A DNA stretch of 64,000 nt from Lytechinus pictus (taxonomy: Eukaryota). The notes under the pieces were generated by a model. It was given only the letters and a program-made list of their open reading frames with translations, made no database searches and was not told the DNA's origin. Below are positions 5,526-40,373 of the stretch, piece by piece; within the stretch, counting starts at the first letter, position 1, and each line of letters opens with the position of its first letter. The translations under genes and the position numbers were made by a program. Where the stretch lies: the NCBI RefSeq assembly GCF_037042905.1, contig NC_087250.1, forward strand, positions 19,036,001 to 19,100,000, given 5' to 3'.

Positions 5526-5559
5526 TGGTTAACTTTGCAAAATGTTATTCGATTGGCAG

Positions 5560-10764: not shown

Positions 10765-12470
10765 AGATAAAACCTCGTAGACTCATAATTCACAAATCAC
10801 CATCTCCCAGCCAAGTATAATTAATGGTTAAGACCTCGAAGGCTCAAAATTCACAGGTCACCATCTCCCAGCCAAGTATAAAGTTAAGGAGAGAGAGAGA
10901 GAGATATAAATACTGGGTGTGCCGTTCACCTACAATTTAAAGGATACGACCTCGTAGGCTCATAATTCACAGGTCACCATCTCCCAGCCAAGTATAAAGT
11001 GAAGGGGAGAGAGAAAGAGATAGAAAGAAAGAAAATACTGGGTGTGCCGTTCACCTACAATTTAAAGGATAAGCCCTCGTAGGCTCATAATTCACAGGTC
11101 ACCATCTCCCAACCAAGTAGAAAGTGAAGGAGAGAGAAAGAGATAGAAAGAAGATACTGGGTGTGCCGTTCACCTACAATTTAAAGGAAAAACCTCGTAG
11201 GCTCATAATTCAAAGGTCACCATATCCCAGCCAAGTATATAGTGAAGGAGAGAGAGAGATATATATATATATATATATATATAAAGAAAATACTGGGTGT
11301 GCCGTTCACCTAGAATTTCTAGGATAAGACCTCGTAGGCTCATAATTCACAGGTCACCATCTCCCAGCCAAGTACAAAGTGAAGGAGAGAGAAAGAGATA
11401 GAAAGAAAATACTGGGTGTGCCGTTCACCTACAATTTAAAGGAAAAACCTCGTAGGCTCATAATTCACAGGTCATCATCTCCCAGCCAAGTATAAAAAGA
11501 AGGAGAGAGAGAGAGAGAGATAGAAAGAAAACACTGTGTGTGCTGAATTTAAAGGATAAGACCTCGTAGGCTCATAATTCACAGGTCATCATCTCTCAGC
11601 CAAGTATAATTAATAGTCAAGACCTCGTAGGCTCATAATTCACAGTTCACTATCTCCAAGCCAAGTATAAAGTGAAGGAGAGAGAGAGAGAGAGATAGAA
11701 AGGAAATACTGGATGTGCCGTTCACCTACAATTTAAAGGATAAGACCTCGTAGGCACATAATTCACAGGTCACCATCTTCCAGCCAAGTATAAAGTGAAG
11801 GAGAGAGAGAAAGAGAGATAGAAAGAAAACACTGGGTGTGCCTAATTTAAAGGATAAGACCTCGTAGGCACATAATTCACAGGTCACCATCTTCCAGCCA
11901 AGTATAAAGTGAAGGAGAGAGAGAAAGAGAGATAGAAAGAAAACACTGGGTGTGCCGAATTTAAAGGATAAGACCTCGTAGGCACATAATTCACAGGTCA
12001 CCATCTTCCAGCCAAGTATAAAGTGAAGGAGAGAGAGAAAGAGAGATAGAAAGAAAACACTGGGTGTGCCTAATTTAAAGGATAAGACCTCGTAGGCTCA
12101 TAATTCACAGGTCACCATCTCCCAGCCAAGTATAAAAGTGAAGGAGAGAGAGATAGAAAGGAAATACTGGGTGTGCCGTTCACCTACAATTTAAAGGATA
12201 AAACCTCGTAGGCTCATAATTCACAGGTCACCATCTCCCAGCCAAGTATAAAAGTGAAGGAGAGAGAGATAGAAAGGAAATACTGGGTGTGCCGTTCACC
12301 TACAATTTAAAGGATACGACCTCGTAGGCTCATAATTCACAGGTCACCATCTCCCAGCCAAGTATAAAATGAAGGAGAGAGAGAGATAGAAAGGAAATAC
12401 TGGGTGTGTCAGTCACTAACAATTAAAAAGATGTAACCTCCTATGCTAAAAATTCACTGACCACCATCTA
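10765..12470. repeat. Tandem repeat with ~115-125-bp unit containing a variable (GA)n microsatellite
   Basis: Unit GACCTCGTAGGCTCATAATTCACAGGTCACCATCTCCCAGCCAAGTATAAAGTGAAGG(GA)n...CTGGGTGTGCCGTTCACCTACAATTTAAAGGAT, about 14-16 copies. Confidence 0.95.
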
Positions 12471-13419: not shown

Positions 13420-14455
13420 GAGATAAAAAGAAAGAAAAAACACGACACGCTTTAATGTCTAAATAATAAGTGGTAAGTGGGAAACACAGAAAGACAAGAA
13501 AAGAGCAGCAATCAAGATTAAGAGTACTTTAGGAACGGCACGGACAAGAGAATAGTGGGTGATAAGTGTATTGTATACTGATCAAAATGAACGATATGAT
13601 ATGTCTATGTGTTTAAGTTGGTATTTGAAAGAATGTACAGATTTTGAAAATCTTATATGGTCAGGCAGCTGGTTCCAATTGAAAGAGCCTAGAAACAGAA
13701 AAGATTTTTGGTAAAAGGTCGTACGACCTTTTGGGCAATCTCAAGAGCAATTTGTCAGAACTACGTGTGGTTCTCGTAGAGACATCATCGACAAATGAAA
13801 GTCTATTGTATAAAATGGCGGGCGATAATTTGTTGACACACTTATACATAAGAACACATGAGGTTCTATGGAAAACTTTGTTTAGAGAGGGCCAATCTAG
13901 TTCTTTAAACACGATTTCAGAACGTGTCATCCATGTGCGATTTGATATCAGATACGCTGCTCTTTTATGTAACGTGTTAAGCGTGTCATAATTTCCTTCT
14001 GATCTCCCAAACCAAACATTAGAACAATAAAGGACATGGGGAATGACATATCCCCAATAAAGTTTGGAAAGTTGAGATTTATTAAAATAATGTTTATTCC
14101 TGCGAATAATTCCAAGCTTACGTTTGATAAGGTTTGAAATTGAATTGGTATGTTGCTTAAAGTCAAGGCAATTATCAATTGTTACGCCCAAACACTTCAC
14201 TTCATTTACACATTCTAGAGTACAGCCATGTATATTTATTGATATTTGTTGATTATGAGTAGTACTTAGTTTTTGTTTTGACCCTAATAGCATTACTTTT
14301 GTTTTATTATAGTTTAAGATTAGTCTGTTATTTCTTATCCATGAATAGGTCTCGCATAGTGCCTGGGTTAGATTGGTTTCGACCTCTGCTTTAGTCTTAC
14401 CAGATACTGAAATAGTAGTGTCATCTGCGTACATATACACTGAGGCACTAGTAAC
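13420..14455 (-). mobile_element. CR1/L2-group LINE 3' fragment (RT C-terminus and 3' UTR)
   Basis: ORF 14440-13661 contains YADDTT, KTKVM, CLGVTID and Y.S.VW. Confidence 0.9.
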
Positions 14456-15300
14456 ATGATTCGATATATTAGTGTTTCAAAATTATTTAAAGATTTAAAA
14501 TGGCAAGACTTTGAGACGCGAAGAGATTATTTCATTAATGTACTTATGTATCGTTGCATACATGGCTCTGCACCACTGAGACTTTGCAATGAAATAGAAA
14601 TGTTTTATGACAGACATGGTTTTAATACTCGTAATGCTGATTCTTTAAATGTCGTCCCGCCCAAACCAAATACCGAACCTTTCAAACAATCCTTCAAATA
14701 CTCAGGTGCAAAATCATGGAATTCTCTCCCAAATGAATTACAAAATCAACAAACCCTTAACTCGTTCAAGAGAAATTATAAACAAAAATATTTTTGAATA
14801 AGATTGATATTACTCTTTAATCAGATGGGTTTCTTTTATAATGAATAGAATAATCATGTTTACTTTTTAAAATATATTTGATATGTTAGTCATATTAATA
14901 TTTTGAGTTTGGTTCAATATTCTCCTTCTTAATATTCCTCTTCTCATTGTTTTTCAATTTCTTGTTTCATTTCTTTCTGACTCCCATCCCCCCTATTTTT
15001 GCTCCATCCTCGGAGTCGACTATTGTTCAATCCTCGGTCGTTTCTATTTCACTGACATTCAAACAATTGTTTCTACTTTCAAACTCGACTTATCACATTT
15101 CTCTTGATTCAAAAATTTTGTCGTTTTGCTATTTTGTTTATCTTATATCTATTTTGTTGCTTGTATATTAATCTTATGAATATTGAATTTATTTTACTGA
15201 TTGTATTTTGTCCTTCAGGACCATGATGTAAAACAGCCATTGTGCTGATACATGTTTTTATACTGAATAAATATTTTGAAATAAATAAATTTAAAAAAAA
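14456..15300 (+). mobile_element. Second CR1/L2-group LINE 3' fragment, head-to-head with the previous one
   Basis: Reads L.W...RR...MY.C....AP...FKYSGAKSWNSLP...SFK. The 3' UTR ends in AATAAA and an A-rich tail at about 15266-15300. Confidence 0.88.
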
Positions 15301-18300
15301 TGTTCGAACTAGAGAGGCGCTAAATTGACGTTTGAATGAGGAGGCGCCGAATCGTTGTTCGAACAAAGGGGGGGGGGCGTCAAATTAATGTTCGAACTAG
15401 GAGGGGGTGCCTAGGTGATGTTCCAACTGGGGGGCGCCGAATTGATGTTCAAACGGGGGGGGGGCGTCAAATTCATGTTCGAACAAGGGGACGCTTTATT
15501 AATGTTCGAACTAGGGTGCGCCAAAGTAATGTTCGTCCTGGAGGGTGCCAAACTGATGTTCGACCTGGAGGGAACAAATTGATGTTCGACTTAGCGGTGC
15601 CAAATTGTGTTCGACCTAGAGGGCGACTACTTGATGCTCGAACTAATGGGGCGCAAAATTAATATTTGACCTTGGGGGCCGCCAAATCGACCTGAAATGA
15701 GGGGGCACCAAATTTACATTCATAACTCGGGGGAGGGTGCCGAATCAGTGTTCGACCTTTCGAGCGCCAATTTCATGTTTGACTTTGGGCGACTACTCCC
15801 AATATGTTTTTTTTTTTTCAACTTTGGAAGTGGAGGGGAAGAGAATGGTCATGACGTCTTCATGCCCTCTGTCGAAAGCACAGCGTTTGTTTATCGATGA
15901 AATTTTGACATGAATATATTAGTAAGCATAAATAAAGGAAAATTATCAATGATCAATGAAAATGTGGGATTGGAAACTGACATAAAAGAAAGAGGGGTGA
16001 AAGGAGTAGATGGAATTCAAACTCCATACTCCCGGTTGCAATGAAGAGAAGGATAAGGCCTAGAGTAAAACTGAGGCCGGACCGAGGTTCCGTGAGGTTG
16101 GGTTGCCGAATCGATGTTCGAACTAGGGGGGCCCTAGGGGCACCGAATCGATATTTGAACTAAGGGCCAAATTGATGTTCGAGCTAGGGGGCGCCAAATT
16201 GATGTTGGAACTAGGATGCACCAAAGCGATGTTCGAACTAGGGGGTGCCGAATCGATGTTCGAACAAGGGGGCCCTAGGGGGCACCGAATTGATATTTGA
16301 ACTAAGAGGGGGGCCAAAAATTGATGTTCGAACTAGGGGGCGCCAGATTGATGTTAGAACTAGGGGGCGTCAGATTGATATTCAAACTAGGGGGCAACGA
16401 ATTGATGTTCGAACTAGGGGGCGCCAAATTGATGTTCGAACTAGGCACGCTAAATTGTTGTTCGACCTAGATGGTGCCAAATTGTTTTCGCCCTAGGGGG
16501 CGCCGAATCTATGTTCGTACGTGCAGGGATCACCACATTGAAGTTAGACTTAGATGGGCACTTAATCGATGCACGAACTTCGGGACACCGAATTGATGTT
16601 CGAACTAGGGGGCGGCGCCAAATTGATGTTAGAACAAGGGGGCGCTGAATTGATGTTCCAAGTAGGGGGCCCTAGGGGCGAAAAAGAGATGTTCGAACAA
16701 GAGAGGCGCTGAATTGATGTTCGAATGAGTGGACGCCGATTTGTTGTTCGAACAAGGGGGGGGGGGCATCAAATTGATGATCGGACTAGGGGGTCGCCAA
16801 AGTGATGTTTGCCTTAGGGGGCGCCAATTGATGTTCAACTTCGGGGAGCCAAATCGATGTTCGACTTTATAGGGGGCGCCAAATCGATGTTCGAATTAGG
16901 GGGCGCCAAATTGATGTTCGAACTAGGGGGGGGGGGGGCTAAATTGATGTTCGAACTAGGGGGGGCGCCAAATTGATTTTAGAAGTAGGGGGCGTCATAT
17001 TGATATTTTAACTAGGGGGCCGCCGACTTAATATTCAAACTAGAGAAGCGCTGAATTGACGTTCAAATGAGAGAGCGCCAAAATGTTGTTCAAACAAGGG
17101 GGGGGGCGTCAAATTGATGTTCAACCTCAGGGTTGCCAAATTGTTTTCGACCTAGGTGGCGCCGAATCGGTGTTCGAACTAGGGGCACCGAATTGATGTT
17201 CGAAGTAGGGGCCGCCAAATTGATTTTCGAACTAGGGAGGGGGAGGGCGCTGAACTGATGTTAGAACTACGGGGGCGATGAATAGATGTTCGAACTAGAG
17301 AGGCGCTGAATTGACCATCGAATGAGGGGGCGCCGAAATTGTTGTTCGAACTAAGGGGCTCTAGGGGCTTAATTGATGTTTGAACTAGGGGAGCGCCAAA
17401 TTGATGTTCCAAGTAGAAGGAGCCAAATTGATATTGAAATTAGGGGGCCCTAGGGGACACCGAATAAATGTTTGAATTAGGGGGCGCCGAATGGATGTTT
17501 GAATTAGGCGGCGCCAGACTGTTGTTCGAACTAGAGAAGCTCCGAATCGACGTTCGAATGAGGGGGCGTAGAATTGATAGAACTAGGGAGGGCGTCAAAA
17601 TGGTGTTCGACCTAGGGGGCGCCAAGTTGATGTTCGACCCAGGGGGGAAATTGTTGTTCGACCTAGGGGGTGCCAAATTGTTTTCGCCCTAGGGGGCGCC
17701 GAATCTATGTTCGTACGTGCAGGGATCACCACATTGAAGTTAGACTTAGATGTGCACTTAATCGATGCACGAACTTCGGGGCACCGAATCGATGTTCGAA
17801 CTAGGGGGCGGCGCCAAATTGATGTTAGAACAAGGGGGCGCTGAATTGATGTTCCAAGTAGGGGGCCCTAGGGGCGCAAAACTGATGTTCGAACTAGAGA
17901 GGCGCTGAATTGATGTTCGAATGAGTAGACGCCGAATCGTTGTTGGGGGGGGGGCATCAAATTGATGATCGGACTAGGGGGTCGCCAAAGTGATGTTCGC
18001 CTTAGGGGGCGCCAAATTGATGTTCAACTTCGGGGAGCCAAATCGATGTTCGACTTTATAGGGGGCGCCAAATCGATGGTCGAATTAGGGGGCGCCAAAT
18101 TGATGTTCGAACTAGGGGGGCGCTTAATTGATGTTCGAACTAGGGGGGGCGCCAAATTGATGTTAGAAGTAGGGGGTGTCAAATGGTGTTCGACCTAGGG
18201 GATGGCGATTTGATGTTCGAACTAGGGGGCGCCAAAATGATGTTCTAACTAGGGGGCACCAAATTGATGTTCGAACTAGGGGCCTTGGGGGCGCTGAATT

Positions 18301-18780
18301 GATGTTTGACCTTGGGGGCGCCGAATAGATGTACGATCTAGAGGGGCGGCAAATAGATTTTCCAATGGAGGGGGGATTTGATGTACGAATAAGGGGACCC
18401 TAGGGGGGCGCCGAATTGATGTTTGAATTAGAGGGTGCCACACTAATGATCGAGCTAGAGAAGCTCCGGATCTACGTTCGAATGAGGGGGCAACGAATTG
18501 ATGTTCAAACTAGGGGGCTAATTGATGTTTCAAGAAGGGGGAGCCGGATTTACGTTCAAAGTAAGGGACCCTAGGTGGCCGAACCGATGTTTGAATTAGG
18601 GGGCGCCGAACGAATGTTTAAATTCGGGGGGGGGGCGCCACACTGATGTTCGAATTGGAGAAGCTCCGAATCTATGTTCGAATGAGGGGGCGCCGAATGG
18701 ATGATCGAAATAGGGGGGCGGCAAAATTATGTTCGACCTAGGGGGCGCCAATTTGATGTTCGAACTAAGGAGGTGCCAAA
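15301..18780. repeat. ~28-30-bp GC-rich minisatellite array with higher-order duplication
   Basis: Unit GATGTTCGAACTAGGGGGCGCCAAATT, interrupted at about 15800-16100. Block 16455-16990 is repeated at about 17650-18170. Confidence 0.95.
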
Positions 18781-18825
18781 GATATCGAAGATGACGTATC
18801 GTCACCGCCCAACGATCAGTCCACT

Positions 18826-19647
18826 TTGAATGACATTCCACCTCCTGATGAAGACTCGAACAAAGGTTTGACATCCGAAGAATGTCATCAGTGTGGCGCT
18901 AAATGTGGATCAAAGGATCACAACTGCATGATGAGATGTAAAGGTATGAATCATCGCATTGACCAGCTGTCGCAGGAATTACGTAAGGTTCAACACGCCG
19001 TAGAAGCTTTACTCGACAACACTATGAAGTCCCAGAATCCCTCCTCTCAGCAAGTTCATCAAAGTGATTGCCTCTCGGCACAAAAGCCTCATCGTCAAAG
19101 ACGTCACGGTCCCGGTCAGGTGCAAACAGATGTTCCTAGGGTTCAGGATGCGTTCCCAGCCGTACCCACTCATCATAACTCCCAACTCCCATCTATGATG
19201 CATATGAATGGATATCCAAGGCCCCCACCACCTCAAGCATCCAGACCCCCTCCACCCCCTGCACCCTCCAAACCCACACAACTTGCTCAACCTAATCCTC
19301 AATATAGATCTTCGCAGTTCTACTCTCAGGATAATGCACGACCCCCCGTGTCATATTACCCGCCCCACACTAGTTTTCAGGCCCCCCAGCGGTACCACAT
19401 TCCATATCCCAACTCTTCACAACGCAGTCATACTTCAATGGATCCGTACCTGGATCCTTATTTCACCAATAAACGTCGTTCATACGCTTCAGTAGCTCGA
19501 CCCCCACCTTCTTTCTACGATATTCCAGCAAGCTGTAGAATTTGTGGCGAACAGAACCACCGTGAACACACATGCCGACATGGAATACAATTACAATGCC
19601 GAAGATGTTTTGAATTCGGTCATAAAGAGAAAATGGGTCAATATTAG
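18826..19647 (+). CDS. LINE ORF1 (gag-like: coiled coil, Pro/Gln-rich region, two zinc knuckles)
   Basis: CRICGEQNHREHTC and degenerate CRRCFEFGHKEKM, directly upstream of an APE endonuclease ORF. Confidence 0.8.
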   Translation: MNDIPPPDEDSNKGLTSEECHQCGAKCGSKDHNCMMRCKGMNHRIDQLSQELRKVQHAVEALLDNTMKSQNPSSQQVHQSDCLSAQKPHRQRRHGPGQVQTDVPRVQDAFPAVPTHHNSQLPSMMHMNGYPRPPPPQASRPPPPPAPSKPTQLAQPNPQYRSSQFYSQDNARPPVSYYPPHTSFQAPQRYHIPYPNSSQRSHTSMDPYLDPYFTNKRRSYASVARPPPSFYDIPASCRICGEQNHREHTCRHGIQLQCRRCFEFGHKEKMGQY

Positions 19648-19680
19648 GTCCACGGCCAAGAAGAGTGTGCCCCGATTAAC

Positions 19681-20022
19681 TTGACGACGAGAAAAGATGA
19701 AATTAATCTGAATTTGTCACCCAACAGCGAATACTGCGAATGTGCTTCTCGTTTATCTAAATACAAGGGCCTAACAATCGGTCACCTCAATGTCCCGAGC
19801 GTTTATGATAAAATTGATGAAATACGCTTTTTAATCACCAAGTTTAATTTTGATATATTAATTTTGACTGAAACCTGGTTACATGAAAAAATTAGCAATA
19901 CTGAAATGAAAATTGGAAGTTATAACATAGTAAGAAAAGATAGAGATAGTGGTTAAAGAGGTGGAGGAGTATTACTGTTTATTCGTGACACCTTAATGTT
20001 TTCTGAAAGATGTGATTTAGAC
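19681..20022 (+). pseudogene. LINE ORF2 apurinic endonuclease, N-terminal half (in-frame stop at 19954)
   Basis: Reads GHLNV.S...DILILTETWL...RKDR...GGGVLLFIR...ERCDLD and continues at 32531. Confidence 0.88.
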
Positions 20023-20078
20023 CAGGCGCGGATCCATGGGGGGGGGCCGAGGGGGCCTTGGCCCCCCCCCCCTTCGGC

Positions 20079-20909
20079 AAAAAAAAAGAAGAGAGGGAAA
20101 GAAAGAGAAAAAAGAGGGGAAAGAAAAGAAGAAAACAAGAGGGGGAAGAAGGGAAGAAAAAAGAGAGAGGAAAAGGGGGGGAAAGAAAAGAAGAAAAGGG
20201 AAGAGGGGGAAGGAAGGGAAGGAAAAGGGAGAGGAAAAGGGGAAAGAAAGAGAAGGAAAAAGAGAGGGAAAGGAAAAGGAGAAAAAAAAGAGAGAGAGGG
20301 GAAGAGGGGAAAGGAAGAGAAGAAAAAGAGAGAGAGGAGAAAAGGAGAAAAAAGAAGAAGAGAAGAAAAGGGAGGGGGAAGGAGAGGGGGAAGAAAAAAG
20401 AGGAAGAGGGGAAAAGAAAAGGAGAGAGAGGAAGAGGGAGGAAAGAAGAGAAGAAAAAAGAGAGGGGAAAGAAAAGAAGAAAAAAGAAGAGGGGAAAGAA
20501 AAGAAGAAAAAATAGGAGAAGAAGAGGGGAAAGAAAGAGAAAAAAGAGGAAGAGGGGGAAGGAAGAGAAGAAAAAGGGAGGGGGAGGGGGAAGAAAAAAG
20601 AGGAAGTAGGGAAAGAAGAGGGGGGAAGAGAGAGGAAGAAGGGAAAGGAAAAGGCGAAAAAGGAGAGAGAGGAAAAGGGAAGAAAGAAGAGAAAAAAGAG
20701 AGAGAAGGGGGAAGAAAAGGGGAAAGGAAGAGAAGAAAAGGGAGGGGGAGAGGGGGAAGAAAAAAGAGGAAGAGGGGAAAGAAAAGGAGAAAAAGGAGAG
20801 AGGAAGAGGGAGGAAAGAAGATAAAAAAAAAGAGAGAAAGAAAAGAAGAAAAGGAGAGAGGAAGAGGGGAAGGACGAGAAGAAAAAAAGAGGAAGAGGAG
20901 GAAAGAAAA
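20079..20909. repeat. ~830-bp almost pure polypurine tract
   Basis: Nearly all A/G on the + strand, with internal repeats. Confidence 0.97.
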
Positions 20910-22640
20910 TGATGTTCGAACCAAAAGGGCGCCGAAATGATGTTCGAATGAATGTCAAAATGATGTTCGAACTGGGGGCGCCAGATTGATACTCGAACAA
21001 GGGGGGGGGGGAGGGGGCCGAATCGATGTTCGAACTAGGGGGACGCCAAATTGATACTCGAACTAGGGGGGCTCAGAATTGATGTTGGAACTAGGGGGCG
21101 CAAAATTGATACTCGAGCTAGGGGGGCCGAAATTATATTCGAACTAGAGGCGCCAAATTGATGTTGGACCTACATGTAGGGGCGCCGAATTGATATTCGG
21201 AATTAGGAGGACGCCGAAATGATGTTCGAAGGGATGTTAAAATGATGTTCGAACTGGGGGCGCCAAATTGATACTCGAACTAGGGGGGGGGGAGGGGCCG
21301 AATCGATGTTCGAACTAGGGGGACGCCAAATTGATACTCGAACTAGGGGGGCTCAGAATTGATGTTGGAACTAGGGTGCGCCAAATTGATACTCGAACTA
21401 TGGGGCGCCAAATTGATGTTGGACCTACATGTAGGGGCGCCGAATTGATATTCGATCTAGGAGGGCGCCAAAATGATGTTCGAAGGGATGTTAAAATGAT
21501 GTTCGAACTGGGGGCGCCAAATTGATACTCGAACTAGGGGGAAGGGGGCGAATCGATGTTCGAGCTAGGGGGGCGCCAAACTGATACTCAAACTAGGGGG
21601 GCGCCGAATTGATGTTCGAACTAGGGGGGGGCGCCAAATTGATACTCGAGCTAGGGGGCGAAATGATTTTCGAACTAGGGAAACCAAATTCAGTTCGAAG
21701 GGATGCCAAAATGATGTTCGAACTGGGGGTCGAATTGATGTTCGAACGGGAAGGGGGGGGGGGCGAATTGATGATCGACCTACATGTAGGGGCGCCGAAT
21801 TGATACTCGAACTAGGGGGGGGGGGCGCCGAATCGATGTTCGAACTAGGGTCACCACATTGATGTTTGAACTAGGGGGCGCCGAATTGATATTCGAACTA
21901 GGGGCGCCAATTTGATGTTCCAACTGGGGGCGCCAAATTGATGTTCAACCTAGGGAGGCCAAATAGATGTTCGACGTAGGGGGGCGCCGATTGAATATTC
22001 GAACTAGGGTCGCCAAATTGATGTTCGAACTAGGGGGCGCCGAATTGCTATTCGAACTTGGGGCGCCAAATTGATGTTCGAACGAAGGGGGCGCCAAATC
22101 GATGTTCGAACTAGGGGGACGCCAAATTGATACTCGAACTAGGGGGGCTCAGAATTGATGTTGGAACTAGGGGGCGCCAAATTGATACTCGAGCAAGGGG
22201 GGGGGGCGAAATGATATTCGAACTAGGGGCGCCAAATTGATGTTGGACCTACATGTAGGGGCGCCGAATTGATATTCGAACTAGGAGGGCGCCGAAATGA
22301 TGTTCGAAGGGATGTTAAAATGATGTTCGAACTGGGGGCGCCAAATTGATACTCGAACTAGGGGGGGGGAGGGGGCCGAATCGATGTTCGAACTAGGGGG
22401 ACGCCAAATTGATACTCGAACTAGGGGAGCGCCGAATTGATGTTCAAACTAGCGGGGCGCCAAATTGATGTTCGAACTAGGGGAGCGCTAATTTGATGTT
22501 TGACCATAAGGCGACATGTTTCAGAAGGGGGAGGGCAAAGTGATATTTCACATGGCGCCAAAATCATGTTCAACCGAGGGCGCTAAATTGACCTTGAACT
22601 TAGGGGGCTCCATGCAAATTCATGTTCGACCAGGGGCGCA
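20910..22640. repeat. Second array of the 28-30-bp GTTCGAAC/GGCGCC minisatellite, inside the hAT-like element
   Basis: Same unit as 15301-18780, with variants GATACTCGAAC and GGACCTACATGTAGG recurring. Confidence 0.95.
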
Positions 22641-23049
22641 ACATTGCTCGTATTGCCTGTTTATAGTGAAATTTATTTCCTGCCCAAAAAGGTTAAATTA
22701 ATGCGGCTGATTTAAAATATCCTGTTTTTACGATAATAGACAAAAATCAATGTGCTCGAGTTTGAAGTTTGTTTCGCAAGATAGGTAACCTGTTCAGGGT
22801 CAGAAAAGGGGTAAATATCAAATTCAGCTGGCGCTACGCGCTCGCAATATTTGATTAGTGAGGTGTGTATCCTCTCCATCGATCACACGTACATAAGTCC
22901 TTAAAATGTTAGTGTTTTTCAAGTCAATATACATAGGCCGATCCAGGGGGAAAAGTTTTTGCCCCCCCCCCCCCCATGGTGGCGCAACAAAAAAAGGGGA
23001 AAAAAAGAAAAAAAAAGACGAAGAGAAAAAGGAAAAACTTTTAGAATAG

Positions 23050-24870
23050 GAACTAGAACTGCAATCGTTTCATTACGATGTGCATGCATTGACGCGTCTG
23101 ATTTAGAGGTCAAGTCCACCTCATAGAAATTTTGATTTGAATCAATAGGGAAAAATCAGACAAGCACAATGCTGAAAATTTCATCAAAATCGGATGTAAA
23201 AAAAGAAAGTTATGACATTTCAAAGTTTCGCTTATTTTTAACAAAAGAGTTATATGAACGAGCCAGTTACATCCAAATGAGAGAGATGATGATGTCACTC
23301 ACTCAAAATGGTGCATGCACTGTCATGCATGAATGATTTTAGAAAATGAAATAAGAGGTACACAATAATGCATCATGGACAACATGTCTACCAAATCGGA
23401 ATGAATTTGGATGAGGAGCGGAGGCAGGGGAAGACTAACAAAAATTACATGTTAATCAAAGTGGATTTTGGTACATTTTGCCCTCCATAGGAAGCTACAT
23501 TCTCAAGTCAAAAGGATTTCGTCCATTGGGCCATTTTTAGACCTATGGCCGCTCAAAAAAAAGAGAGAGAAGGGAGAGAAAGACACAGAGAGTAATATGA
23601 ATACGCATACACATTTCCCTGACAGTTCATTAACGTAACTCAGTGTAAAGTACATAGCAGAACGATGTGCATGCATAATACGTTATGCCATAGACATTGT
23701 GTACAATTCTGTTGTTGATAATGTGTGCACTGTGAGTAGTAAACCATGTGTTCAGATTGGCTTATCTTGAAATTTTCTGTTGTAACCTATGTCGTATTTG
23801 GTATCACTGGATAGGGCATTCCAATGCGGTGACATTGATACCACTTTTATTTTTGCGCAAGCAATAGACCGGAAGTAAATGCCATATAAAGAAAGACATT
23901 AAAAATGACAGTTTTGCACAATAATTTTAAGCTGACGTGAGCTCTATGTCAGTTTCTGTCACAAAAGGTTGACGAACGGTTAAAGTATATATCAATACTC
24001 ATATCTGCCAAGTTAGAAAGGATAAGCTTCAATAATAAGGAAATAAGAGCAAGTTGAAGTTGTGCTGGCATTATAGTGCATTTTTGCGTATTTTGCTGAT
24101 TTTCGGGAGCATTATTCAGATATTTCGTCAGCTGTAAGGTATATATTTTTCTAAATGGCATGAATGGGCATATCTTGAACACCCTAAATCTAAAAAAGGG
24201 TACGGGTTTGGCCATGCATGACGCAATGAGGAGCATTCAAAGATAAGCGTTTTTGAAACTTTAGAGGGCGCTATTTCAATGCCGGAAGGTCGATGATGCG
24301 TGAAAACTAAGTCGTATGTATGATATGTTGCCAGTATCAATTCCTGAAAATATCAACTCGAATTGAATAAAAAGAAAAAAGTTATGGCCATTTTACGATT
24401 ATTTGACTTTACGTTTCAATAAATATGAAGTTTTTGAAGGAAGGCTATTTCGGATTTGAATTTAGGGCATGAAGATGGCATTTTGAAGGTCAGGTTATAC
24501 GTCGCAAATGATGGAGCAACTCTTTGACTATCTATAGCAATTTGTTAGAAGTCTGTAACATGCAGGATGCGGGAGTTAGGACGATATTAGTAATGGTATG
24601 CAAATGGACTTGAAATTTACAAAATGGCGCCTGGATGGTCATGCATGAGTGATTTTGGAAAATGGAAGACGAGGTGCACAACTAGGGATGCTTGACGACA
24701 TGTCTACAAAGTTTGGATGAATTTGGATGAGGGACGGAGCCAGGGTAGAGCTAACAAAAACCATGTGTTAAACAAATGGGATTTGGTGGAAGAAGAAGAA
24801 GAAGAAGACGACGGAATAGGAATACGGAACAAGAACAATGCATTGTCGCCATTGGGCGTCAATGCAATTA
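23050..24870 (-). mobile_element. Helentron-associated/DINE-1-like element with further insertions
   Basis: Inverted repeat TGCATTGACGC (23085) / GCGTCAATGCA (24856), partial partner TGCATTGTCGC (24840), adjacent (GAA)n, and two diverged core repeats at about 23305 and 24620. Confidence 0.6.
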
Positions 24871-25062
24871 TACCTTAAAAGAGTCCTTCTTAAGTCAGTA
24901 TATAAAAAATTGAGCTCGCGCTACGCGCTCGCATCACTGTTTAGTTATATACGCATCTCAACCTCACAGGTTTTTTTTTACGCGAACGAGAAGCACAAGC
25001 TGAAAATATTTTATATTCTAATCTGACAACTGAAAAAGCTTCGCGCTCGCATTCATTTCTTA

Positions 25063-25560
25063 AAGGACAAGTCCACCCCCCAAAAAAAAATGTTGATTTG
25101 AATAAATAGAGAAAAATCAAACAAGCATTATGCTGAAAATTTCATCAAAATCGGATGTAAAATAAGAAAATTATGACATTTATAAAATTTTGCTTATTTT
25201 TCACAAAACAGTGATATGCACAACTCAGTGACATGCAAATGAGACAGTCGATAATGTCCCTCACTCACGAATTCCTTTGCTTTTATTGTTAGAGTTTTAC
25301 AATATTTCATTTTTTACAGATTTTACAATATGAACCAACTTGATTGAACCATTTAGTATTAAACAATGCTAATTGCTCATGTTCAGGGAGGAATTAATCG
25401 TTGTTTCACACGACAACAGAGAAAAATGGAATATTTCATATTTCATATACTAAAATACAAAAAGAAGTAGTGAGTGAGTGATGTCATCAGTCTCCTCATT
25501 TGCATACCGACAAGGATTTGAATATAACTTGTGAAATTAAGCGAAACTTTAAAATGTTGT
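25063..25560. mobile_element. Kolobok-like MITE (AGGACAAGTCCACCCC family), right end truncated
   Basis: Related copies at about 23105, 37258, 42699 and 61699, several starting at TTAA|AGG. Confidence 0.65.
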
Positions 25561-25698
25561 TGGCCTACCTATTATCTTTGTGTATTTCCTATAAGATTCT
25601 CAAAATATTCATTTTCAGGTGTCTCGATTGTCAAAATGAAGGCCTATGAGCTAGCGCTGTGCGCTCGCATTTTGATTGGTGATTTCTGTATACCTATA

Positions 25699-28600
25699 CA
25701 GTGGCGTAACTACCAGGGGGCATGGGGGACACGTCCCCCCCAAAAAAAAAAAATTATTGTTTATTATAATGTTATATTTTATCATAATTATTTTACATAA
25801 GAAGCATTTTGTTCATGACTTTATGAAACAGTTTGCTCAGGGCCTATGTCTTCATTGTTCCTGGTGCTCGCGTGGACTGTTTAACGAGATGTATAATCAT
25901 GTTGTACTAAAACCTCCCGTTTTCAAATCAATATACACCAAATATATTTCCTCACATTTCGAGTTATTATTGTTTTATGTAGTGACATTTGCTTCTTTTT
26001 CATGACTACTTAAAGTGATTGCCCAATTTTAGGGTCTTAATATAAAACATTTCCTGTCCATGCTTACGTTCGCATTAGTTGATTGGTGGGTGCCAGGTAA
26101 AAATGGCAGAGGTAATAATGGCAGAGGTAAAAATGGCAGAGGTGAAAATGGCAGAGGTAAAAATGGCAGAAATAAAAATGGCAGAGGTAATAATGGCAGA
26201 GGTAAAAATGGCAGAGGTAAAAATGGCAGAGGTAAAAATGGCAGAGGTAAAAATGGCAGAGGTAAAAATGGCAGAGGTGAAAATGGCAGAGGTAAAAATG
26301 TCAGAAGTAAAAATAGCAGAGGTAATAATGGCAGGGGTAAAAATGGCAGAGGTAAAAATGGCAGAGGCAAAAATGGCAGAGGTAAAAATGGCAAAGGTAA
26401 AAATGGCAGAGGTAATAATGGCAGAGGTAAAATGGCAGGGGTTATAATGGGAGAGGTAAAAATGACAGCTCTAGGTAAAATATGGTCAGTCTTAAACCCC
26501 CATGCAATGAATTGTCAAAATGCCCCCGCATGTAAAATCCTGAAGATTTTTCCACATTTTAATATTGGTACAGATCCATTTAAACAAATGACGATATAAC
26601 TGTCGAAAAATATTTCCGCTTGAGTGAGCACCACTTACTTTTGAAAAGTTATTGAAAAATGGGGTACCGGTTTGTTAAAAAGCCGAGAAAAAAAAGTTTT
26701 CAATCCAAAATGAAAGGGGATTTGGTTAAGGGGGAAAATTACACAAAAATTATTTCAACTAAATGAAGTTCTTTTAGGTCAGAAAACGAATTACAACAAA
26801 AATAATAACAATTAGATAATAAACAATGTTTTTTTTTATGTTTGAAAAATAACAGATTTGTATCAAATCTCTACATTTTAGCATACCAAGCTAATTACCA
26901 AGAGGGTGCTGCTTATGGTGTACAAAATACCCAACCGCTTCCAAGGGTTATGACCATCAAGGCGTTTATATCATATTGGATGCAGTGGTTAAGGTTCAGG
27001 GTCTTCTTTTATGCAAAGAATCTGAACCAGACGGTCCCCCTCGATCGACCCCAAATTGGTTTACCATTCAAAACAGGATTATTATTGATTTTCATAATCA
27101 GTTACATATTCAGTGCCAAGCCTGGGAACGCATGCTTATTGTCATTCAAATATTTAAAAAGAATAGTACAGACGACATTACAAATAAGGACATAATATTT
27201 AACCACAATCATTCGTGACAATTTCAAGGTCTAAGCTTTCCCCGCTATGTTCTCTATGTTGTTCCCCGCCCCCGTAACCCACTCTGTCTCTCCACCTCTC
27301 TTATGTCTACTCTTCCTCCTTTTTGCATCGGTAAACCTGGCAATGACAATGACAATGACAATGACAATGATTTTATTTCTTTGACGGCCCCTCCTGGGGG
27401 CATAGAAGAAATATAACAACTTACAACAATGGCAATAATAGGCATAAGAAAAAAAATACCAAGGTAACAAAAAAAAAATAGATATAAAGAAACCAGCCAG
27501 ACAAAAAGGAATGTTATGAAATGATGAATGAGAATAGTGCAGTTTCATTTTGCTCCTGATAAATTGAATGAAAAAAAATCTGTCGTTTGATTTCTTTTTA
27601 AAAAGCGTTCACGGTACACCTCCAACGAATTCGTAAATAGCATTGTTAGGCCGATTAAGACATAATGATGATGAAATGCCTAACCGTGACATGCACTTCT
27701 TATTTAATGTATGTACATGCGGGGGCTTTTTGACAATTCATTGCATGGGGGTTTAAGACTGGCCATATTTTACCTAGAGCTGTCATTTTTACCTCTCCCA
27801 TTATAACCCCTGCCATTTTACCTCTGCCATTATTACCTCTGCCATTTTTACATCTGCCATTTTTACCTCTACCATTTTTACCTCTGCCATTTTTTTTACC
27901 TCTGCCATTTTTACCTCTGCCATTATTACCTCTGCCATTTTCACTTCTGCCATTTTTGCCTCTGCCATTTTTACCTCTGCCATTTTTACCTCTGCCATTT
28001 TTACCTCTGTCATTTTTACATCTGCCATTTTTACCTCTGCCATTTTTACCTCTGCTATTTTTACATCTGCCATTTTTACCTCTGCCATTTTTACCTCTGC
28101 CATTTTTACCTCTGCCATTATTGCCTCTGCCATTTTTACACCGAGCCGATTGGTGAGATGTCTGCTCTTCATGAATTCCTAAAATCAGTTCTTAAAATGT
28201 CAATTTTTCTGATCTGAATATCAAAAGTTTTTAGCTCGCGCTTCGCGCTCGCATCATTTGGTTAGTGAAATACGTAAGGACTTAGTGAATTCCTACAAAC
28301 AAGCCTTAGAATGCCCCTCTTCAGGTCTGAATTTCATAAATTTTCAGCTCGCGCTTCGCGCTCGCAGTATTTGATTAGTGAGATGCATATGATAATCATG
28401 ATTACTATGACAACAAAAAGTGCTTCATATGTTTAGATGTAATTCTAACAAAATCAGCAAAGGATGCCACTATCATTAGATGACTATGCTGAGATATTTA
28501 TACTCTTAATGGATACCTAAAATAAAGTCCTTAAAATGTCCCTGTTTGGGGTCAATACATACAAAAATTTCAGCTCGCGCTTCGCGCTCGCATTGTTTGT

Positions 28601-28860
28601 TTAGCGAGACAGGTACGTATCACGATTACAAACAATTTGCTTATAATGTCTCTTTTTGGTCTGAATATCAAAAATTTTCAGCTCGCGCTTCGCGATCGCA
28701 TTATTTAATCAGTGACATACTTATCCGTTTAATGGCATTGCATGTCCTTAAAATTTCTCTATTAGGTCAGCATACCTGGCAACTGAGCGCGGTCCCTAAG
28801 TGACACCAAATTTGTGGTGGTGCCCCCCCCCCCAATGCCGTGACCCACGGTACGTCACTG
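25699..28860. mobile_element. 3.2-kb hAT-like element nested in the 12.5-kb element
   Basis: TSD TACCTATA (25691-25698 and 28861-28868). TIR CAGTGGCGTA / TACGTCACTG. Confidence 0.85.
26089..28147. mobile_element. Foldback-type element with ~440-bp TIRs built from 15-bp repeats
   Basis: (AAAAATGGCAGAGGT)n at left and its reverse complement at right, plus a ~70-bp inner non-repetitive IR. GG...CC ends and TSD GATTGGTG (26081-26088 and 28148-28155). Confidence 0.9.
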
Positions 28861-29072
28861 TACCTATATATTCTGTAACAAACTACTTGAATTGAATTCC
28901 CCCCATTTAAAAATTTCGGATCGCGATTTGCGCTCGCATTATTTGCTATAAATGTATCAACCCATGAATGCTGTTCATGATTACAAAAAATATAAAATAT
29001 CCAGTTTTTCAGGCCTCATGCACTGTCAACAGATTTCACGCACTCATTAGGCTTATTAGATTAATAAATGAA

Positions 29073-30835
29073 GAGCTCACTTGCAAAAGGGGTTAGGTCC
29101 ATTTTTCATCAAATTTGATTTTTATGTCTCAATGTATAGATTTTTAGTAGCTCTATGAGATGATACCAAAGAAAAGTTGAAATTCCTATTAAAAAGTGAA
29201 CTAAAATGGCAAACAAAAGCCACTTTTTTTTTAAAAAGGGTTTAGGTCCATTTCAGTTTAGTTGCAAAAGGGGTTAGGTCCAAACAGAATTTTTTTGGAA
29301 AAGTATATCATAAAATATATGAAGACAGGTAGATTTCTTTTATACCCAATTTAATGTTCTCATGGAAGGGTATCATGAAAATTCAGTTTCGCATAAAAAT
29401 ATTGCAATCTGGGAGAATTAAAAAAATTATTTTCTTGGAGTGGACCTAACCCCTTTTGCAACAAAACTCTTCTGAAGAACTCATTTGTCAAAATGGGTTA
29501 GGTCCATTTTTCATAAATTTTATTGTTTTCTGTCTCTAAACCTCTAAATTTTTAGTCACTCTGATGATACGAAAGAAAATTTGAAATTCAAATGAAAACG
29601 TGAGTGAAAGTGGCAAAGAAAAATCACAATTTTAATCAATGAAGAGGAAATTGAAATAGTTCATAAGTTCAAATACTTAGGTACCATTATTGACGATGGA
29701 TTAAAATGGGGAGATCAATGCAATTCAATTTACAAGAAGGCAATACAACGGATGTATTTCCTAAGAAAATTGAAGTCATTCCATGTTGACCGCACCATAA
29801 TGGTTTTATTCTATAGATCACTTATTGAAAGCATCCTCATATTTGATTGTGTGGTTTGGTTCACAAGCTGTCGCAAAAAAGATCTGAATATACTAAGTAG
29901 AATGGTCAGACAAGCAGAAAAAATAACAGGACCCGACCTTAACCTCACTGATGTATGCCGAAACAGAATACTTGAAAAGGCAAAAGAGATACTATACAAT
30001 AATGATCACCCATTGAATGTAAACTACGAAAGGCTGAGATCTGATAATAGACTACGGTCGGCACGTTGTCGAACAAATAGGTTCTTAAACTCATTCGATC
30101 GTGCCAAGCTCAATCCGAATGCTGAATGAGGAAGGGATTGTATAAGAATAATGATATGCCCAATAATGTAAATTTACCTTGTCAGGTAGTTGATGTTAAT
30201 TCTTTAAAACAACAATATTGAAAATAAAAATAATATGTAAATACTGATAACAATAACAATTACAAGTGGACAATGCTGTGAAGATTTATAGTACTGATTT
30301 ATTACAATTCTAATGCAATTTCAATTCAATATCCGATATCTAACTTTCAGTTCAGATTTCCATTTCAATCTTAATTTTAATATCAATAACAGTATTTTTT
30401 TCAAATGCTACCCAGTGGGTAGTATTTGCACGTGTATATCATAATTGACTATATGTGATTGTTCGATTTTCTGTAAATATGTTCATTTTCTATGCTATGT
30501 TATGTATGTTCAATACCATGTAAAAATGCAAATTTCCACTTATTTATTTATCTGGACAATAAATACTACCTTATGAACCTTATGAAAAGAGATTGGATTA
30601 ATTTCAGTTTAGTTGCAAAAGGGGTTAGGTCCACAATGATAATTTTTTTAAAGATATATAGAAAAAAATTGAAGACAGGTAGATTTCTTTTATACCCAAT
30701 TTTATGTTCACATGATAGGGTAGTACATCATGACAATTTAGTTTCTCATAAGACTATTGCAATAAGTGAGAATAAAAAACATGGTTTTTCTCGGAATGGT
30801 CCAAAGTGGACCTAACCCCTTTTGCAACTAAACTC
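29073..30835. mobile_element. Two tandem MITE copies with GAG...CTC ends (29073-29469 and 29477-30835; Sola-like, tentative); the second is split by a LINE fragment
   Basis: TIR cores TTGCAAAAGGGGTTAGGTCC / GGACCTAACCCCTTTTGCAA. The internal sequence is shared between copies. Confidence 0.7.
29636..30585 (+). mobile_element. Rex1/Babar-like LINE 3' fragment
   Basis: Reads FKYLG.IID...QRMYFLRKL...FYRS.IESIL....VWF...HPL...RTNRF.NSF. Ends with AATAAA and a CCTTATGAA tandem tail. Confidence 0.8.
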
Positions 30836-32530
30836 TTCAAATATGAAATACAATTTTTATGAATTCATAACTAAATTGTCCTTTTTCAAAAAAAAATATC
30901 GACACGTTCTAGGAAGAGGAATAAAAGATAGGCATCATTTTTATATGACAAAATGTCCTTAGGCCTAAAATGTCTCGATCCTAGTTTTAAAAAATAATAA
31001 AATATCAGCTCGCGCTTCGCGCTCGAATCATTTATTAAGTACTTTCCACATCCACTTCACAATTCCCCTATATACACAGTGCTTTAAATATTGCTTAAAT
31101 TGACCCATTTCATATCGGAATTTCAAATATTATTTCCAGCTCGCGATCCGCGCTCGCATTATTGATTTTCATGATGAAAAATGAAATGTATTCAGAATGC
31201 CCAGATTTTGTCTAACTCTAAAACACGTGCATGCATGTTTATCGAGATACGCATCTTGATCTTATTAAAAACGTGCTAAAATTATCCAGTTTTAGATCAG
31301 AATATCAAAATTTTCTGCTCGCGCTTTGCGCTCGTATTATTAATGTAGGAAGATACCAAAAACTACCCATCATTTTTCATGAGTGACAAAACATGAATCG
31401 AGTGTCCCGTTGGGGGTTTGAAATCTAATTTTTTAGGTTGGAATATCAAAAATGTTCAGCTCGCGCTTCGCGTCGCATTATTTAATCGTTGAAATATGTA
31501 TTGTCTTAATGGCTAACTGCAAAATTTCCTTAACAGGTCCCTTTTCGACCAGGTCAGAACGCACATTAAAAATTTCTGCTCGCGCTTCGCGCTCGTAGTA
31601 ATTATCTAGTTACATACGCATCTTGTTCAGTTTCACAAACATTGCCCAGAATGTTCAATTTTCAGGTCAAAATACATGAAATTTAATTTTTTTTTCCTCG
31701 CATAGGGCTTATGAGATTATTGCACATTAATGTTGTTTATAAAGTAAAGCTAGGAAATGACTGTTAGGACATGGGCGTTTTGTCCCCCCCCCAAAAAAAA
31801 AAAAAAAAAAATCACGACCAAGAAAAAAAAAGAGAGAAAAGGAAAGGGATTATGGGGAAATATAATATTATTTTCCAAATTTTATGTCAAATATATCGCG
31901 CTTCGCGTTATCATTATTTATTTAGGCCTTGTGAGATACCTCAATGTGTTTTTAAGAATAAAATTTCGGAATTTCTTTAACTTCTACCCCCCATTTTATT
32001 TTTATTGTTTTATCTTGGTGCCCTCTACAAAAGTTCAACAAGCACCCCCCCCCCCGTGCAACCCTGCTGAATAAATCACAGCTTCGCTACTGATGAGGAG
32101 ATTGAGTCGATTGCTTCGAGATTGCATTATTCCCAAGAGGTTATCATTGATATTAATAAGGGCTATTCTAAACAACTAGTAAAGAAACTACAGCTCCCGT
32201 TCACACAATATTCTAGTAGGGCCTACTCTGGTGAGAAGTTAAACCAAATTGAGACCCCCCAAAATCGCTCGCGCTTCGCGCTCCAATTGATATTACATTA
32301 TATATTCATGGATTTTTTTTGTTCAAGAACACATAAAAAAAGTGGTCTTTAATTGCCTTTTTTTATGTGATTATGTAATAAGATAATTCAAAATACATTC
32401 AAGGCATTTAAGTTAGCCTGGCCGGGAGGGAGGGGGCGCCATTTTTCGAAAAGTACACATGGGCGCCAAAAATCAGGTCAAATTTGGGCCCCCCTCCCCA
32501 CAAAATTTTGGATCCGCGCCTGATTTAGAC

Positions 32531-33170
32531 AACAAGTTATTGGAAGCGAAGTGGATTGATGTATTATTAAAATCTAAAACAATAACTATTGGTTGTGTTT
32601 ATCGTCCACCTAATGCTGATGTAGCTTATTCTAATAACATGCTTGACATTTTTGAAAAAGCAAGTATGAGCAATGATGATTTAATTGTACTAGGTGATCT
32701 AAACTATGATTATAAGCTCGATGAACATTTGTGTGACAACCCAATTAATCTGCTAGAAAACCTTTTTTCTTTAAGACAAATGATTTTAGAACCAACAAGA
32801 GTTACCAGTGCATCATCGAAATGTTTAGATCACATTCTCAGTTCAATGCCTGATAAGCATTTAATCAGGGACGTTGCTAAAATCGCATTAAGTGATCACT
32901 ATCTAATTTATACATGCATTGGTGTACGTAATGAAAAGAAAATAAAACATAAAATGATTCGTTATCGTGACTTTCAAAATTTTAAAGCCAAATTATTTAT
33001 TCAAGATTTGAAGATATGTGATACGTTCAATAATTCAAATACCAATAATTTACCATTAAATAAAATGTGGTCCAAATGGAAAACGTCTTTCCTTGAACTT
33101 TGTAACAAACATGCTCCTTCCAAAGAAAGTAGATTGAGAGATCGTCATAATCCATGGATTTCCTCTGATG
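32531..33170 (+). pseudogene. LINE ORF2 endonuclease C-terminal half (continuation of 19681-20022), truncated before the RT
   Basis: Contains GCVYRPP, GDLN, PTRVT, LDHI, SDH, KHAP and PWI. Confidence 0.9.
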
Positions 33171-33199
33171 TATGGTTTGACAAAGTTGCATTTTTTCTA

Positions 33200-33815
33200 T
33201 TAGAATAGTAATAATAATGATAATAATATAAGTTATAATAATAATGACAATAATGATGATAATGGTAATGATGATGATAATAATAATAAAAGTCATAATC
33301 CTAATAAGAAAGTTATATATTTTACCCAGGGTAGCCAAAGAATTAAAATTAAAAAAATAAAATTATAATGATAAAATATACTCTCATTGCTTTCGGGTTC
33401 ATAATTATGATCGTTAATTTGATCGTTAAAACTTTAATGAAATCATAATAAGTATCAATCCATTAATCAATCAATTCTTCCATCCAGCCATCACTCAATC
33501 GATTAATTATCAATCAATCATTCAATCAATCAATCAATAAATAAATCAGTCAATCTTTCAATCAATCAATCTTTCAATCAATTAATCAAACAATCAATCA
33601 GTCAATCAATCAATCAATCGATCAATCACTCAGTCAATCAATCAACAACACATCGCATGTAGAATGCTCAGATTAAATCGATGAATACACTTAATTCAAT
33701 ATTATTTTATTTGTTACATTACTTTTATAAAGGGGTATAGTCCAATCTAGAAGAAGAAGGAGAAAGAGGAGGAGGAGCAGGAGGAGGAGGAGGAGAAGAA
33801 GAAGAAGAAGGAAAA

Positions 33816-34464: not shown

Positions 34465-36023
34465 GAAAAACAAGGCAAACGCCAAGCGTTGTCTCGCCTG
34501 CATATTGCAGTCATGAAGAGACTGCATGTCAAAACTACATGTATGCTATATGACTTAGATGGACCTCTGTTACGAGTTTGACGCCCGGGGGGGGGCACTC
34601 GACCAAAAAAGTAGTGGGTATGTGCCGCGGGCGAGACAAAAAACGGGGGCCTTGGAGCGGGCTTATTGTAAAAAGGAGGGTCCTCGGAACGGGCTTCGGA
34701 ACGACAAATGTTTGTGAAAACGGGGGTCCTTGGAACGGGTCGCCTGCGTGTGATTGTGTATTCATCCATATGGAACGGGCATACGTGCATGCAGCTATAG
34801 CCCGGCGGCACGGGCGCCGGGTGCGCTAGCGCAGATGCGATGGTCGGACAGCGCTCCGCGGCCGCTTTTCACCAAAACTGCGGCTCGTAGCAGATCAATA
34901 CGGCCGGAACGGCGTAACGGAAAATGTGCGAAGCTTTGGAGCGGATTTCTTTCTTCTTTTTTTCTCGATAAGAAGAAAATGCTATGCTTTGGAGCGGCTT
35001 TCTTTGTTCTTTTTCTCAAGAAGACAAAAATGCTATGCCTTGGAACAGAAATTTGAGTGTGAAAATTGGGTTCCCCTCCGCGGCACATACCCACTATGCA
35101 TTATATACTGAGTGCCCCCCGGGGTTTGGCGATCCCACCTCGAAGCTATAGAAAGTTATTGTGTGTACAACACAGCACAGTGCCAGTCATGGAAAGTTCA
35201 TTGACCTTTGACCTTAATCGAATTCAACTCACATTCGAACTTGACCTGCACCTTCAAGAGATGGACGTCTGTTATGAATTTGGCGATCTCACCTCGAAGC
35301 TATAGAAAGTTATTGTGTGTATAACACAGCACAGTGCGAGTCATGGAAAGTTCATTGACCTTTGACCTTAATCGAATTCAACTCACATTCGAACTTGACC
35401 TGCACCTTCAAGAGATGGACGTCTGTTATGAATTTGGCGATCTCACCTCGAAGCTATAGAAAGTTATTGTGTGTATAACACAGCACAGTGCGAGTCATGG
35501 AAAGTTCATTGACCTTTGACCTTATTCAAATTCGACTCATATTCGAACTTGACCTGTGCCTTCAGGAGATGGACCTCTGGTATGAATTTGGTGATCCCAC
35601 CTCAAAGATATAGAAAGTAATTATGTGTACAACACAGCACAGTGCCAGTCATGGAAAGTTCATTGACCTTTGACCTTATTCAGATTCGACTCATATTCGA
35701 ACTTGACCTGTGCCTTCGGGAGATGGACCTCTGGTATGAATTTGGTGATCCCACCTCGAAGATATAGAAAGTTATTATGTGTACAACACAGCACAGTGCC
35801 AGTCATGGAAAGTTCATTGACCTTTGACCTTATTCAAATTCGACTCATATTCGAACTTGACCTGTGCCTTCAGGAGATGGACCTTTGGTATGAATTTGGT
35901 GATCCCATCTCGAAGATATAGAAAGTTATTGGGTGTACAACACAATTGTTGACGACGACGACGACGCCGACACCGGAAATAGTGATACCTATGTCTCGCT
36001 CCGCTACGCAGGCGAGACAAAAA
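34465..36023 (-). mobile_element. Complete Helentron-associated/DINE-1-like element with about 7 tandem 119-bp core repeats
   Basis: SubTIR GTCTCGCCTGC (34491) / GCAGGCGAGAC (36008), partial IR GTCTCGCT (35993), (GAC)n microsatellite, tandem cores at 35124-35945 and A-rich flanks. Confidence 0.75.
34584..35123 (+). mobile_element. CCCGGG-ended MITE, family A copy 1
   Basis: TIR CCCGGGG..GCACTC / GAGTGCCCCCCGGG. TSD GTTTGACG / GTTTGGCG. Homologous to 39466-39999 and 43337-43875. Confidence 0.85.
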
Positions 36024-39362: not shown

Positions 39363-40373
39363 CCCGGGGGGGGGGCAGTCAAATATATTGCTGTACACAC
39401 GCGTGACCAAGAAACTTCCAAACACCCCCTAAACATGCTAAACGAGTTTTTCTCTGTGTGCAAAACCCGGGGGGGGGGGCACTCGACCAAAAAAGTAGTG
39501 GGTATGTGCCGCAGGCGAGACAAAAAACGGGGGCCTTGGAGCGGGCTTGTTGTAAAAAGGAGGGTCCTCGGAACGGGCTTCGGAACGACAAATGTTTGTG
39601 AAAACGGGGGTCCAGCGTGTGATTGCGTATTCATCCCTATGGAACGGGCATACGGGCATGCAGCTAGCCCGGCGGCACGGGCGCCGGCTGCGCTAGCGCA
39701 GATGCGATGGTCGGACAGCGCTCGCGGCCGCTTTTCACCAAAATTGCGGCTCTTTGTAGCAGATCAATGCGGCTGGAACGCCGTAACGGAAAATATGCGA
39801 AGCTTTGGAGCGGATTTCTTTCTTCTTTTTTCTCGATAAGAAGAAAATAATATGCCTTGGAGCGTCCTTCTTTGTTCTTTTTCTCAATAAGACAAAAATG
39901 CTACGCCTTGGAACGGAAATTTGAGTGCAAAATTGGGGGTCCCCTCCGCGGCACATACCCACTATGCATTATATACTGAGTGCCCCCCCCCCCCCCAGGG
40001 TGCAAAATGACCCCCTAAACATACTTTGCGGGCTTTATTTACACATTTTGGCCCCTTAACAAGATGTCGCCAAAATATGACCTCGGGGGAAAAAGCTTGG
40101 CAAAAAACTTACCCTAAACACGTTTGGCTAGTCTTAAAAAAAAAGCTTTGGGGGAAAAAACATACCCTAAATACGTTTGACCCTGCAATTGACCATTGAC
40201 CAGTCTTTCGAAACCACCCTTTTTCTTGAAAATCGGTGTTTTTGATACCCATAACGAGTCCACGCGCGGACCGCGTCCAAAGCTGAAAAAAAACACCCCT
40301 TTAAACGCGTTTTTTGGTCACGCGTGTGTAGGCCTACAGCAATATATTTGACTGCCCCTCCCCCCGGGGGGGG
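39363..40373. mobile_element. CCCGGG-ended MITE, family B, containing a family A copy
   Basis: TSD GGATATTG (39355-39362 and 40374-40381). TIR GGGGCAGTCAAATATATTGCTGTA / TACAGCAATATATTTGACTGCCCC. Confidence 0.85.
39466..39999 (+). mobile_element. CCCGGG-ended MITE, family A copy 2
   Basis: TSD GTGCAAAA. Near-identical to 34584-35123. Confidence 0.85.

Follow-up and report, generated by a model that had tools for sequence, protein, structure and literature searches.

The stretch analysed here, hereafter the window, comprises 64,000 nucleotides of Lytechinus pictus (assembly GCF_037042905.1, contig NC_087250.1, positions 19,036,001 to 19,100,000) and contains a mobile element of 12,500 bp (20023-32522), called the outer element below, which sits inside a long interspersed nuclear element (LINE) and carries smaller insertions of its own. 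It is bounded by a perfect 14-bp terminal inverted repeat (TIR), CAGGCGCGGATCCA, whose left copy occupies 20023-20036 (+) and whose right copy occupies 32509-32522 (-), as found both by inverted-repeat comparison and by a TIR search of the window; one public contig, from the run labelled X7 below, terminates exactly at 32522. The inverted match is exactly 14 bp long, and further inward the two ends share no similarity. With up to one mismatch allowed, the TIR occurs at these two places only in the whole window, where 0.01 occurrences are expected on average by chance. Exact copies of a target site duplication (TSD) of 8 bp, ATTTAGAC, lie at 20015-20022 and 32523-32530; when flanking duplications of 2 to 14 bp were tried, a match was seen at 8 bp only, and the composition-based chance of this 8-mer is ~3e-5. 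The perfect TIR and the TSD that had been noticed earlier from the letters alone (the sequence-only reading) are thus both exact. The same reading had recognized no transposase inside, in agreement with which no transposase family was found by Pfam in 46 open reading frames (ORFs) of at least 50 aa, that is, 46 of the 48 internal ORFs, with two ORFs in 15-bp arrays left out and both the purine tract and 27-bp satellite outside the scan.

The host LINE is interrupted without loss. Its left part (18769-20022, +) holds an ORF1-like frame with a Cys/His-rich end, for which there was no Pfam match, followed by the N-terminal part of the endonuclease, while its right part (32531-33175, +) holds the rest of the endonuclease (Exo_endo_phos, E=0.0011) and is truncated, so that this copy stops short of the reverse transcriptase (RT) domain. 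The endonuclease frame runs on across the insertion site, with one other stop at ~19954. A search with the right endonuclease part returned 16 matches out of 489 candidates, 13 of which span the site. In 11 of these 13 homologues the two parts abut, the last residue matched by the left one being followed directly by the first of the right one, and none is lost, and in the remaining two the junction is offset by +2 and -4. An exact split of the endonuclease, as first proposed, is therefore well founded, and together with the TIR, the TSD and the lack of a transposase it bears out the view that a non-autonomous cut-and-paste element with hAT-like ends inserted into the LINE.

Much of the outer element was contributed by other elements. 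Four nested inserts, two of which have approximate boundaries and two of which carry one more insert each, amount to 7,262 bp, or 58% of its length. The backbone without them measures ~5,240 bp and comprises the TIR, a purine tract, a minisatellite of 27 bp and a degenerate array of ~120-bp units. The first insert, of ~1.8 kb (~23053-24872, +; approximate boundaries), was compared with the hallmarks of HINE and Helentron elements, namely subterminal inverted repeats, a 3' stem-loop, a microsatellite and a T-rich target without TSD (PMC4067079). It looks Helentron-like, with an 11-bp subterminal inverted repeat, a short microsatellite and a 3' stem-loop (z -3.85), one arm of which is formed by the 3' inverted repeat itself; neither a TSD nor a partner end was found for it, and an empty site did not show up either. 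The second (25059-25557, +) is a MITE (miniature inverted-repeat transposable element) that begins with TTAA-AGG and has lost its right end; it likewise yielded neither a TSD nor a partner end, and four other copies in the window are related to it at 81-85% identity. It may be Kolobok-like.

The third insert is a non-autonomous element with CAGTG ends (25699-28860, +), flanked by an exact 8-bp TSD, TACCTATA, at 25691-25698 and 28861-28868. Within it lies a foldback element (26089-28147) with an exact 8-bp TSD of its own, GATTGGTG, whose long inverted arms consist of an outer domain of 15-bp tandem repeats and a non-repetitive inner domain, the latter identical at 92 of 94 bp, on either side of a non-coding middle. 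It may be akin to the sea-urchin TU foldbacks. In its tandem outer domains, inner domain, non-coding middle and 8-bp TSD it also resembles Tetris (PMC4079207), a parallel that concerns this nested insert only. The fourth insert is a tandem pair of ~400-bp TIR elements with GAAGAG ends and a 4-bp direct repeat, AAAT (29070-30838, +), and the second member of the pair harbors a 947-bp LINE 3' fragment (29638-30584, +).

The left backbone begins with features that recur behind the same TIR in other genomes. A search for the 14-mer followed by a G-run gave 85 matching stretches in metagenome contigs, most of which, judged by their context, are apparently DNA of animal hosts; the 73 upstream flanks, from mixed hosts, show no target preference. 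Ten distinct closed elements with this TIR were found in the contigs of other animals, all of 100-1295 bp. A hairpin of a G-run and a C-run follows the left TIR (20038-20073, +), with a fold no better than that of shuffled sequences (z -1.56), and such hairpins are common behind the same TIR in other animals. Next comes a polypurine tract of 832 bp (20079-20910, +; 99.2% purine). Behind the TIR hairpin of several short elements from other hosts (L006, L012 and L015) the sequence is also purine-rich, over shorter stretches, so the tract is an expanded native feature.

The purine tract is followed by a 27-28-bp minisatellite of ~60 monomers (~20911-22640, +), which has no TSD of its own and contains internal duplications at 81-99% identity. 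A second array of the same satellite, ~3.5 kb long (~15290-18790, +), lies outside the element, 1.2 kb upstream and on the same strand, without the outer TIR; it abuts the ORF1-like frame of the host LINE, which lacks a clear 5' start. The sequence-only reading had described the tract and the minisatellite as cargo of the element; both are indeed present, but the minisatellite is not confined to it. Each array has internal duplications of its own. Between the most similar blocks, identity reaches 93% inside an array but only ~85% from one array to the other, and the longest exact matches are 83 and 86 bp within the arrays and 30 bp between them, so that neither array was recently copied from the other. 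A local origin of the inner satellite from the outer array was rejected on these grounds. To judge from the sequences, both arrays grew locally and the monomer was dispersed by something. Viral contigs contained no exact match to the monomer.

From 22760 to 32330 (+) the backbone is built of a degenerate ~115-140-bp tandem unit with a conserved CGCG core, broken up by the nested inserts. The core motif has 13 matches with up to three mismatches in the window, all within the element and all on the plus strand, and none across 100 shuffles. What had been described as a dispersed CGCG motif is accordingly specific to the element within the window, but it is really the core of a degenerate tandem unit. 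Once the inserts are taken out, seven of the 12 backbone core spacings fall at 99-142 bp, the removal of two inserts reducing spacings of 621 and 3269 bp to 122 and 99 bp. The other five stay at 178-373 bp, so the backbone holds additional pieces. The degenerate unit is also present in the nested CAGTG-ended element. An orphan module resembling the left end, with a TIR-like start, G/C runs and a purine stretch, can be read at 22931-23050 (+), for which neither partner end nor TSD was found. The right arm (30843-32508, +) contains CGCG units, a second orphan module of this kind at ~31768, and the hexamer GGCGCC at 32435 and 32462; GGCGCC thus occurs twice within 90 bp of the right terminus, and it recurs throughout the left satellite monomers. 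With its short perfect TIR of the CA...TG kind and its exact 8-bp TSD, the outer element is likely, but not proven, to be of hAT type. Short TIR, 8-bp TSD and unlike ends with short repeated motifs are shared with Hermes and other hAT ends (PMC10368747). It differs from Hermes in lacking a transposase, and that GGCGCC might be a motif bound by a transposase is a lead only.

Public contigs provide a view of how these pieces occur elsewhere. Part of 28150-33200 is contained in 14 of 23 listed runs and half of it in none; the contigs of four runs from four studies (X1, X2, X5 and X7) were compared. In all four, position 29637 is joined to 30585, skipping the LINE fragment. The empty site of the foldback, its left flank joined straight to its right flank, occurs in at least one contig of X1, at least 71 of X2 and at least 69 of X5. 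Contigs that begin at 29068 have varied left flanks (at least 52 contigs in X2 and at least 44 in X7), which indicates that the ~400-bp element moves on its own, and the two ~400-bp elements occur as a pair in other contigs as well. Joints between CGCG units (e.g., 31681-32261) were set aside as short unit-to-unit matches. In X2, depth, which is not copy number, is 4,285-26,945 in the right arm (31868-32543), 468-787 at 29671-30346 and 221-456 in the LINE flank. The same pattern holds in X5 and X7, while in X1 the LINE flank is uncovered, which is uninformative at the low depth of that run. This contrast supports, without proving it, the reading that the right arm is a repeat family and that the 12.5-kb form with its LINE fragment is not amplified.

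Taken together, these observations are best explained, in our view with good confidence, by a hAT-type element of at most ~5 kb that inserted into the LINE and was then swollen by nested inserts. The starting element would have been non-autonomous and built of tandem repeats, with a transposase supplied from elsewhere. Its insertion into the endonuclease region of the LINE copy, with duplication of 8 bp, is shown by the boundaries, TSD and clean split seen here. It would then have served as a landing site for the four inserts, two with an inner insert, whose nesting is evident and which add ~7.3 kb, and we infer that most of this gain took place at the present locus. In the left backbone, the purine tract and the 27-bp satellite would have changed in length by local duplication, duplications that are visible whatever their timing. 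In support of this history, both the CAGTG-ended element and the foldback have exact 8-bp TSDs, core spacing is restored by removal of two inserts, and the ten closed elements with this TIR in other animals are all short. The locus looks like an ordinary transposon nest and not like a giant satellite carrier, and in its 12.5-kb form it is probably a single fossil copy rather than a mobile unit. The size of the element, which had been called unusual, does not stand out on closer inspection: 58% of it is nested inserts, at least two of these inserts are missing from other copies of the repeats that host them, and a 12.7-kb maize Ds2 that grew in the same manner has been published (PMC3260210). 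As described there by Du et al. (2011), Ds elements have a short TIR and an 8-bp TSD, and large ones such as the 12.7-kb Ds2-13 are far shorter without their insertions. Our element is like maize Ds2 and Ds-like elements in being non-autonomous, with a short TIR, an 8-bp TSD, a filler interior and a length owed to inserts. It differs from Ds2 in that its inserts are mostly DNA elements plus a LINE fragment, its backbone is tandem-repetitive and it has no known autonomous partner.

Several points weigh against this history. A paralogous empty site dates an insert relative to its host repeat, not relative to the landing of the outer element at this locus. Some inner pieces, namely the truncated TTAA-AGG element, the orphan modules resembling the left end and the paired ~400-bp elements, look older than the perfect TIR and TSD and may have been inherited from the donor copy. 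Among the matches listed, there was neither an empty site of the outer element nor a piece bridging 32522, and the depth contrast is subject to the reservation given above. The metagenome contigs with the TIR are short, 18 of 85 having 1 kb behind it, and come from other species, which biases them toward short elements and makes them a poor guide to the family in the present genome. Finally, the ten closed elements have an exact TSD of 8 bp in three cases (L006, L015 and L027), of 5 bp in four (L008, L040, L044 and L056) and none in three, so the TIR does not fix the superfamily. As a separate observation, one end design may serve transposases of different stagger.

A possible alternative, though one that we favor less, is that a family which seeds repeats genome-wide normally takes the form of the ~5-kb backbone, its satellite and purine tract being about as long as they are here. 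It agrees with the preferred history on the nested part and differs on the satellite only. It would account for a satellite that comes right after TIR and purine tract and is flanked by no separate TSD, for the purine stretch behind the TIR in short relatives from other hosts, and for the satellite's GGCGCC in the right end; the depth of the right arm, far above that of the LINE flank, points the same way, and the separately amplified array 1.2 kb away indicates that the monomer does disperse. However, that second array lacks such a TIR, so another carrier or origin is possible, and neither the satellite core nor the CGCG core occurs in any of the 85 TIR loci of other animals. It would be tempting to extend this alternative. 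We speculate, rather doubtfully, that the backbone is a multi-copy hAT-type family seeding 27-bp and ~120-bp repeats and a long purine tract, that its satellite grew from its own subterminal GGCGCC, and that such a carrier left behind the TIR-less 3.5-kb array. Non-autonomous elements with tandem arrays that are linked to satellites are on record with Tetris (PMC4079207), and also with DTC84/pearl (PMC3879986) and with miDNA4 and Xmix (reviewed in PMC9659126). Our element resembles the last three in having internal tandem arrays of variable copy number in a non-coding mobile element. There are differences, however: those three are shown to be multi-copy carriers, whereas the 27-bp array here is a candidate cargo, and unlike pearl the outer element has true TIRs and an 8-bp TSD instead of pearl-type ends.

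That the ends belong to the P type, or to another superfamily with 8-bp TSDs, is unlikely. P elements, too, have CA...TG ends and 8-bp TSDs. The variable TSD length would fit this assignment, as would the lack of an autonomous partner: besides the 46 ORFs of the element, Pfam was also run on 28 of the 51 ORFs that follow this TIR in the metagenome contigs (those past already closed short elements were left out), and no transposase was found. Nevertheless, the short TIR, unlike ends and 8-bp TSD agree with Ac/Ds and Hermes as described, and ATTTAGAC, whose second letter is T and whose seventh is A, conforms to the Hermes target preference nTnnnnAn (PMC10368747), a weak indication from one site.

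It is more improbable still that all or most of the 12.5-kb composite came together at a donor site and moved as one unit. Such a move could explain why the TIR and TSD are unmutated while several inner pieces are degenerate or truncated, and size by itself is no bar to Ds mobility in the account of PMC3260210. Yet the junction of the LINE fragment at 29637 is bridged, among the contigs listed, by a single X1 contig (29574-30327, with 10 differences in 750 bp) that has the lowest X1 depth (5.34), the listed X2, X5 and X7 pieces stop at or skip that junction, and the interior and the LINE flank have depths of similar magnitude. A misassembly of repeats is scarcely credible: the region is repeat-rich, no listed contig spans it and no run holds half of the sampled words, but a misjoin would not be expected to yield TSDs that match on three levels of nesting or a LINE split that is exact to the codon, and the independent X1 contig bridges an internal junction.

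The rest of the window is also rich in repeats. Two different LINE 3' ends lie head to head at 13661-14476 (-; RT domain, E=1e-07) and 14444-15290 (+), and a separate RT fragment occupies 7617-8404 (+, E=2.2e-23). Tandem arrays are common throughout, with further minisatellites at 10821-12469 (114-118 bp), 35125-35944 (154 bp), 46335-47638 (90 bp) and 54575-55088 (25-bp period), and a dispersed repeat of ~550 bp has three copies that are 85-91% identical (34567-35120, 39471-39996 and 43318-43870). Caspase-domain exons were found at 1988-2368 and 5481-5798 (+), and a weak GIY-YIG match at 926-1360 (+, E=0.00027). An ORF at 56387-57004 (+) encodes a complete THAP domain (E=4.8e-15) and might be part of a host gene or a 5' exon of a P-type transposase.

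In summary, at least six insertions have left clean, stacked traces at this locus, which can help to put repeat families in order and to compile a repeat library for this genome. No general view is changed by it, as both the enlargement of hAT-type elements by nesting and the growth of satellites in non-autonomous elements have been published. If the backbone were indeed a satellite carrier, it would add an example with short TIRs to a route already on record with MITEs and foldbacks.

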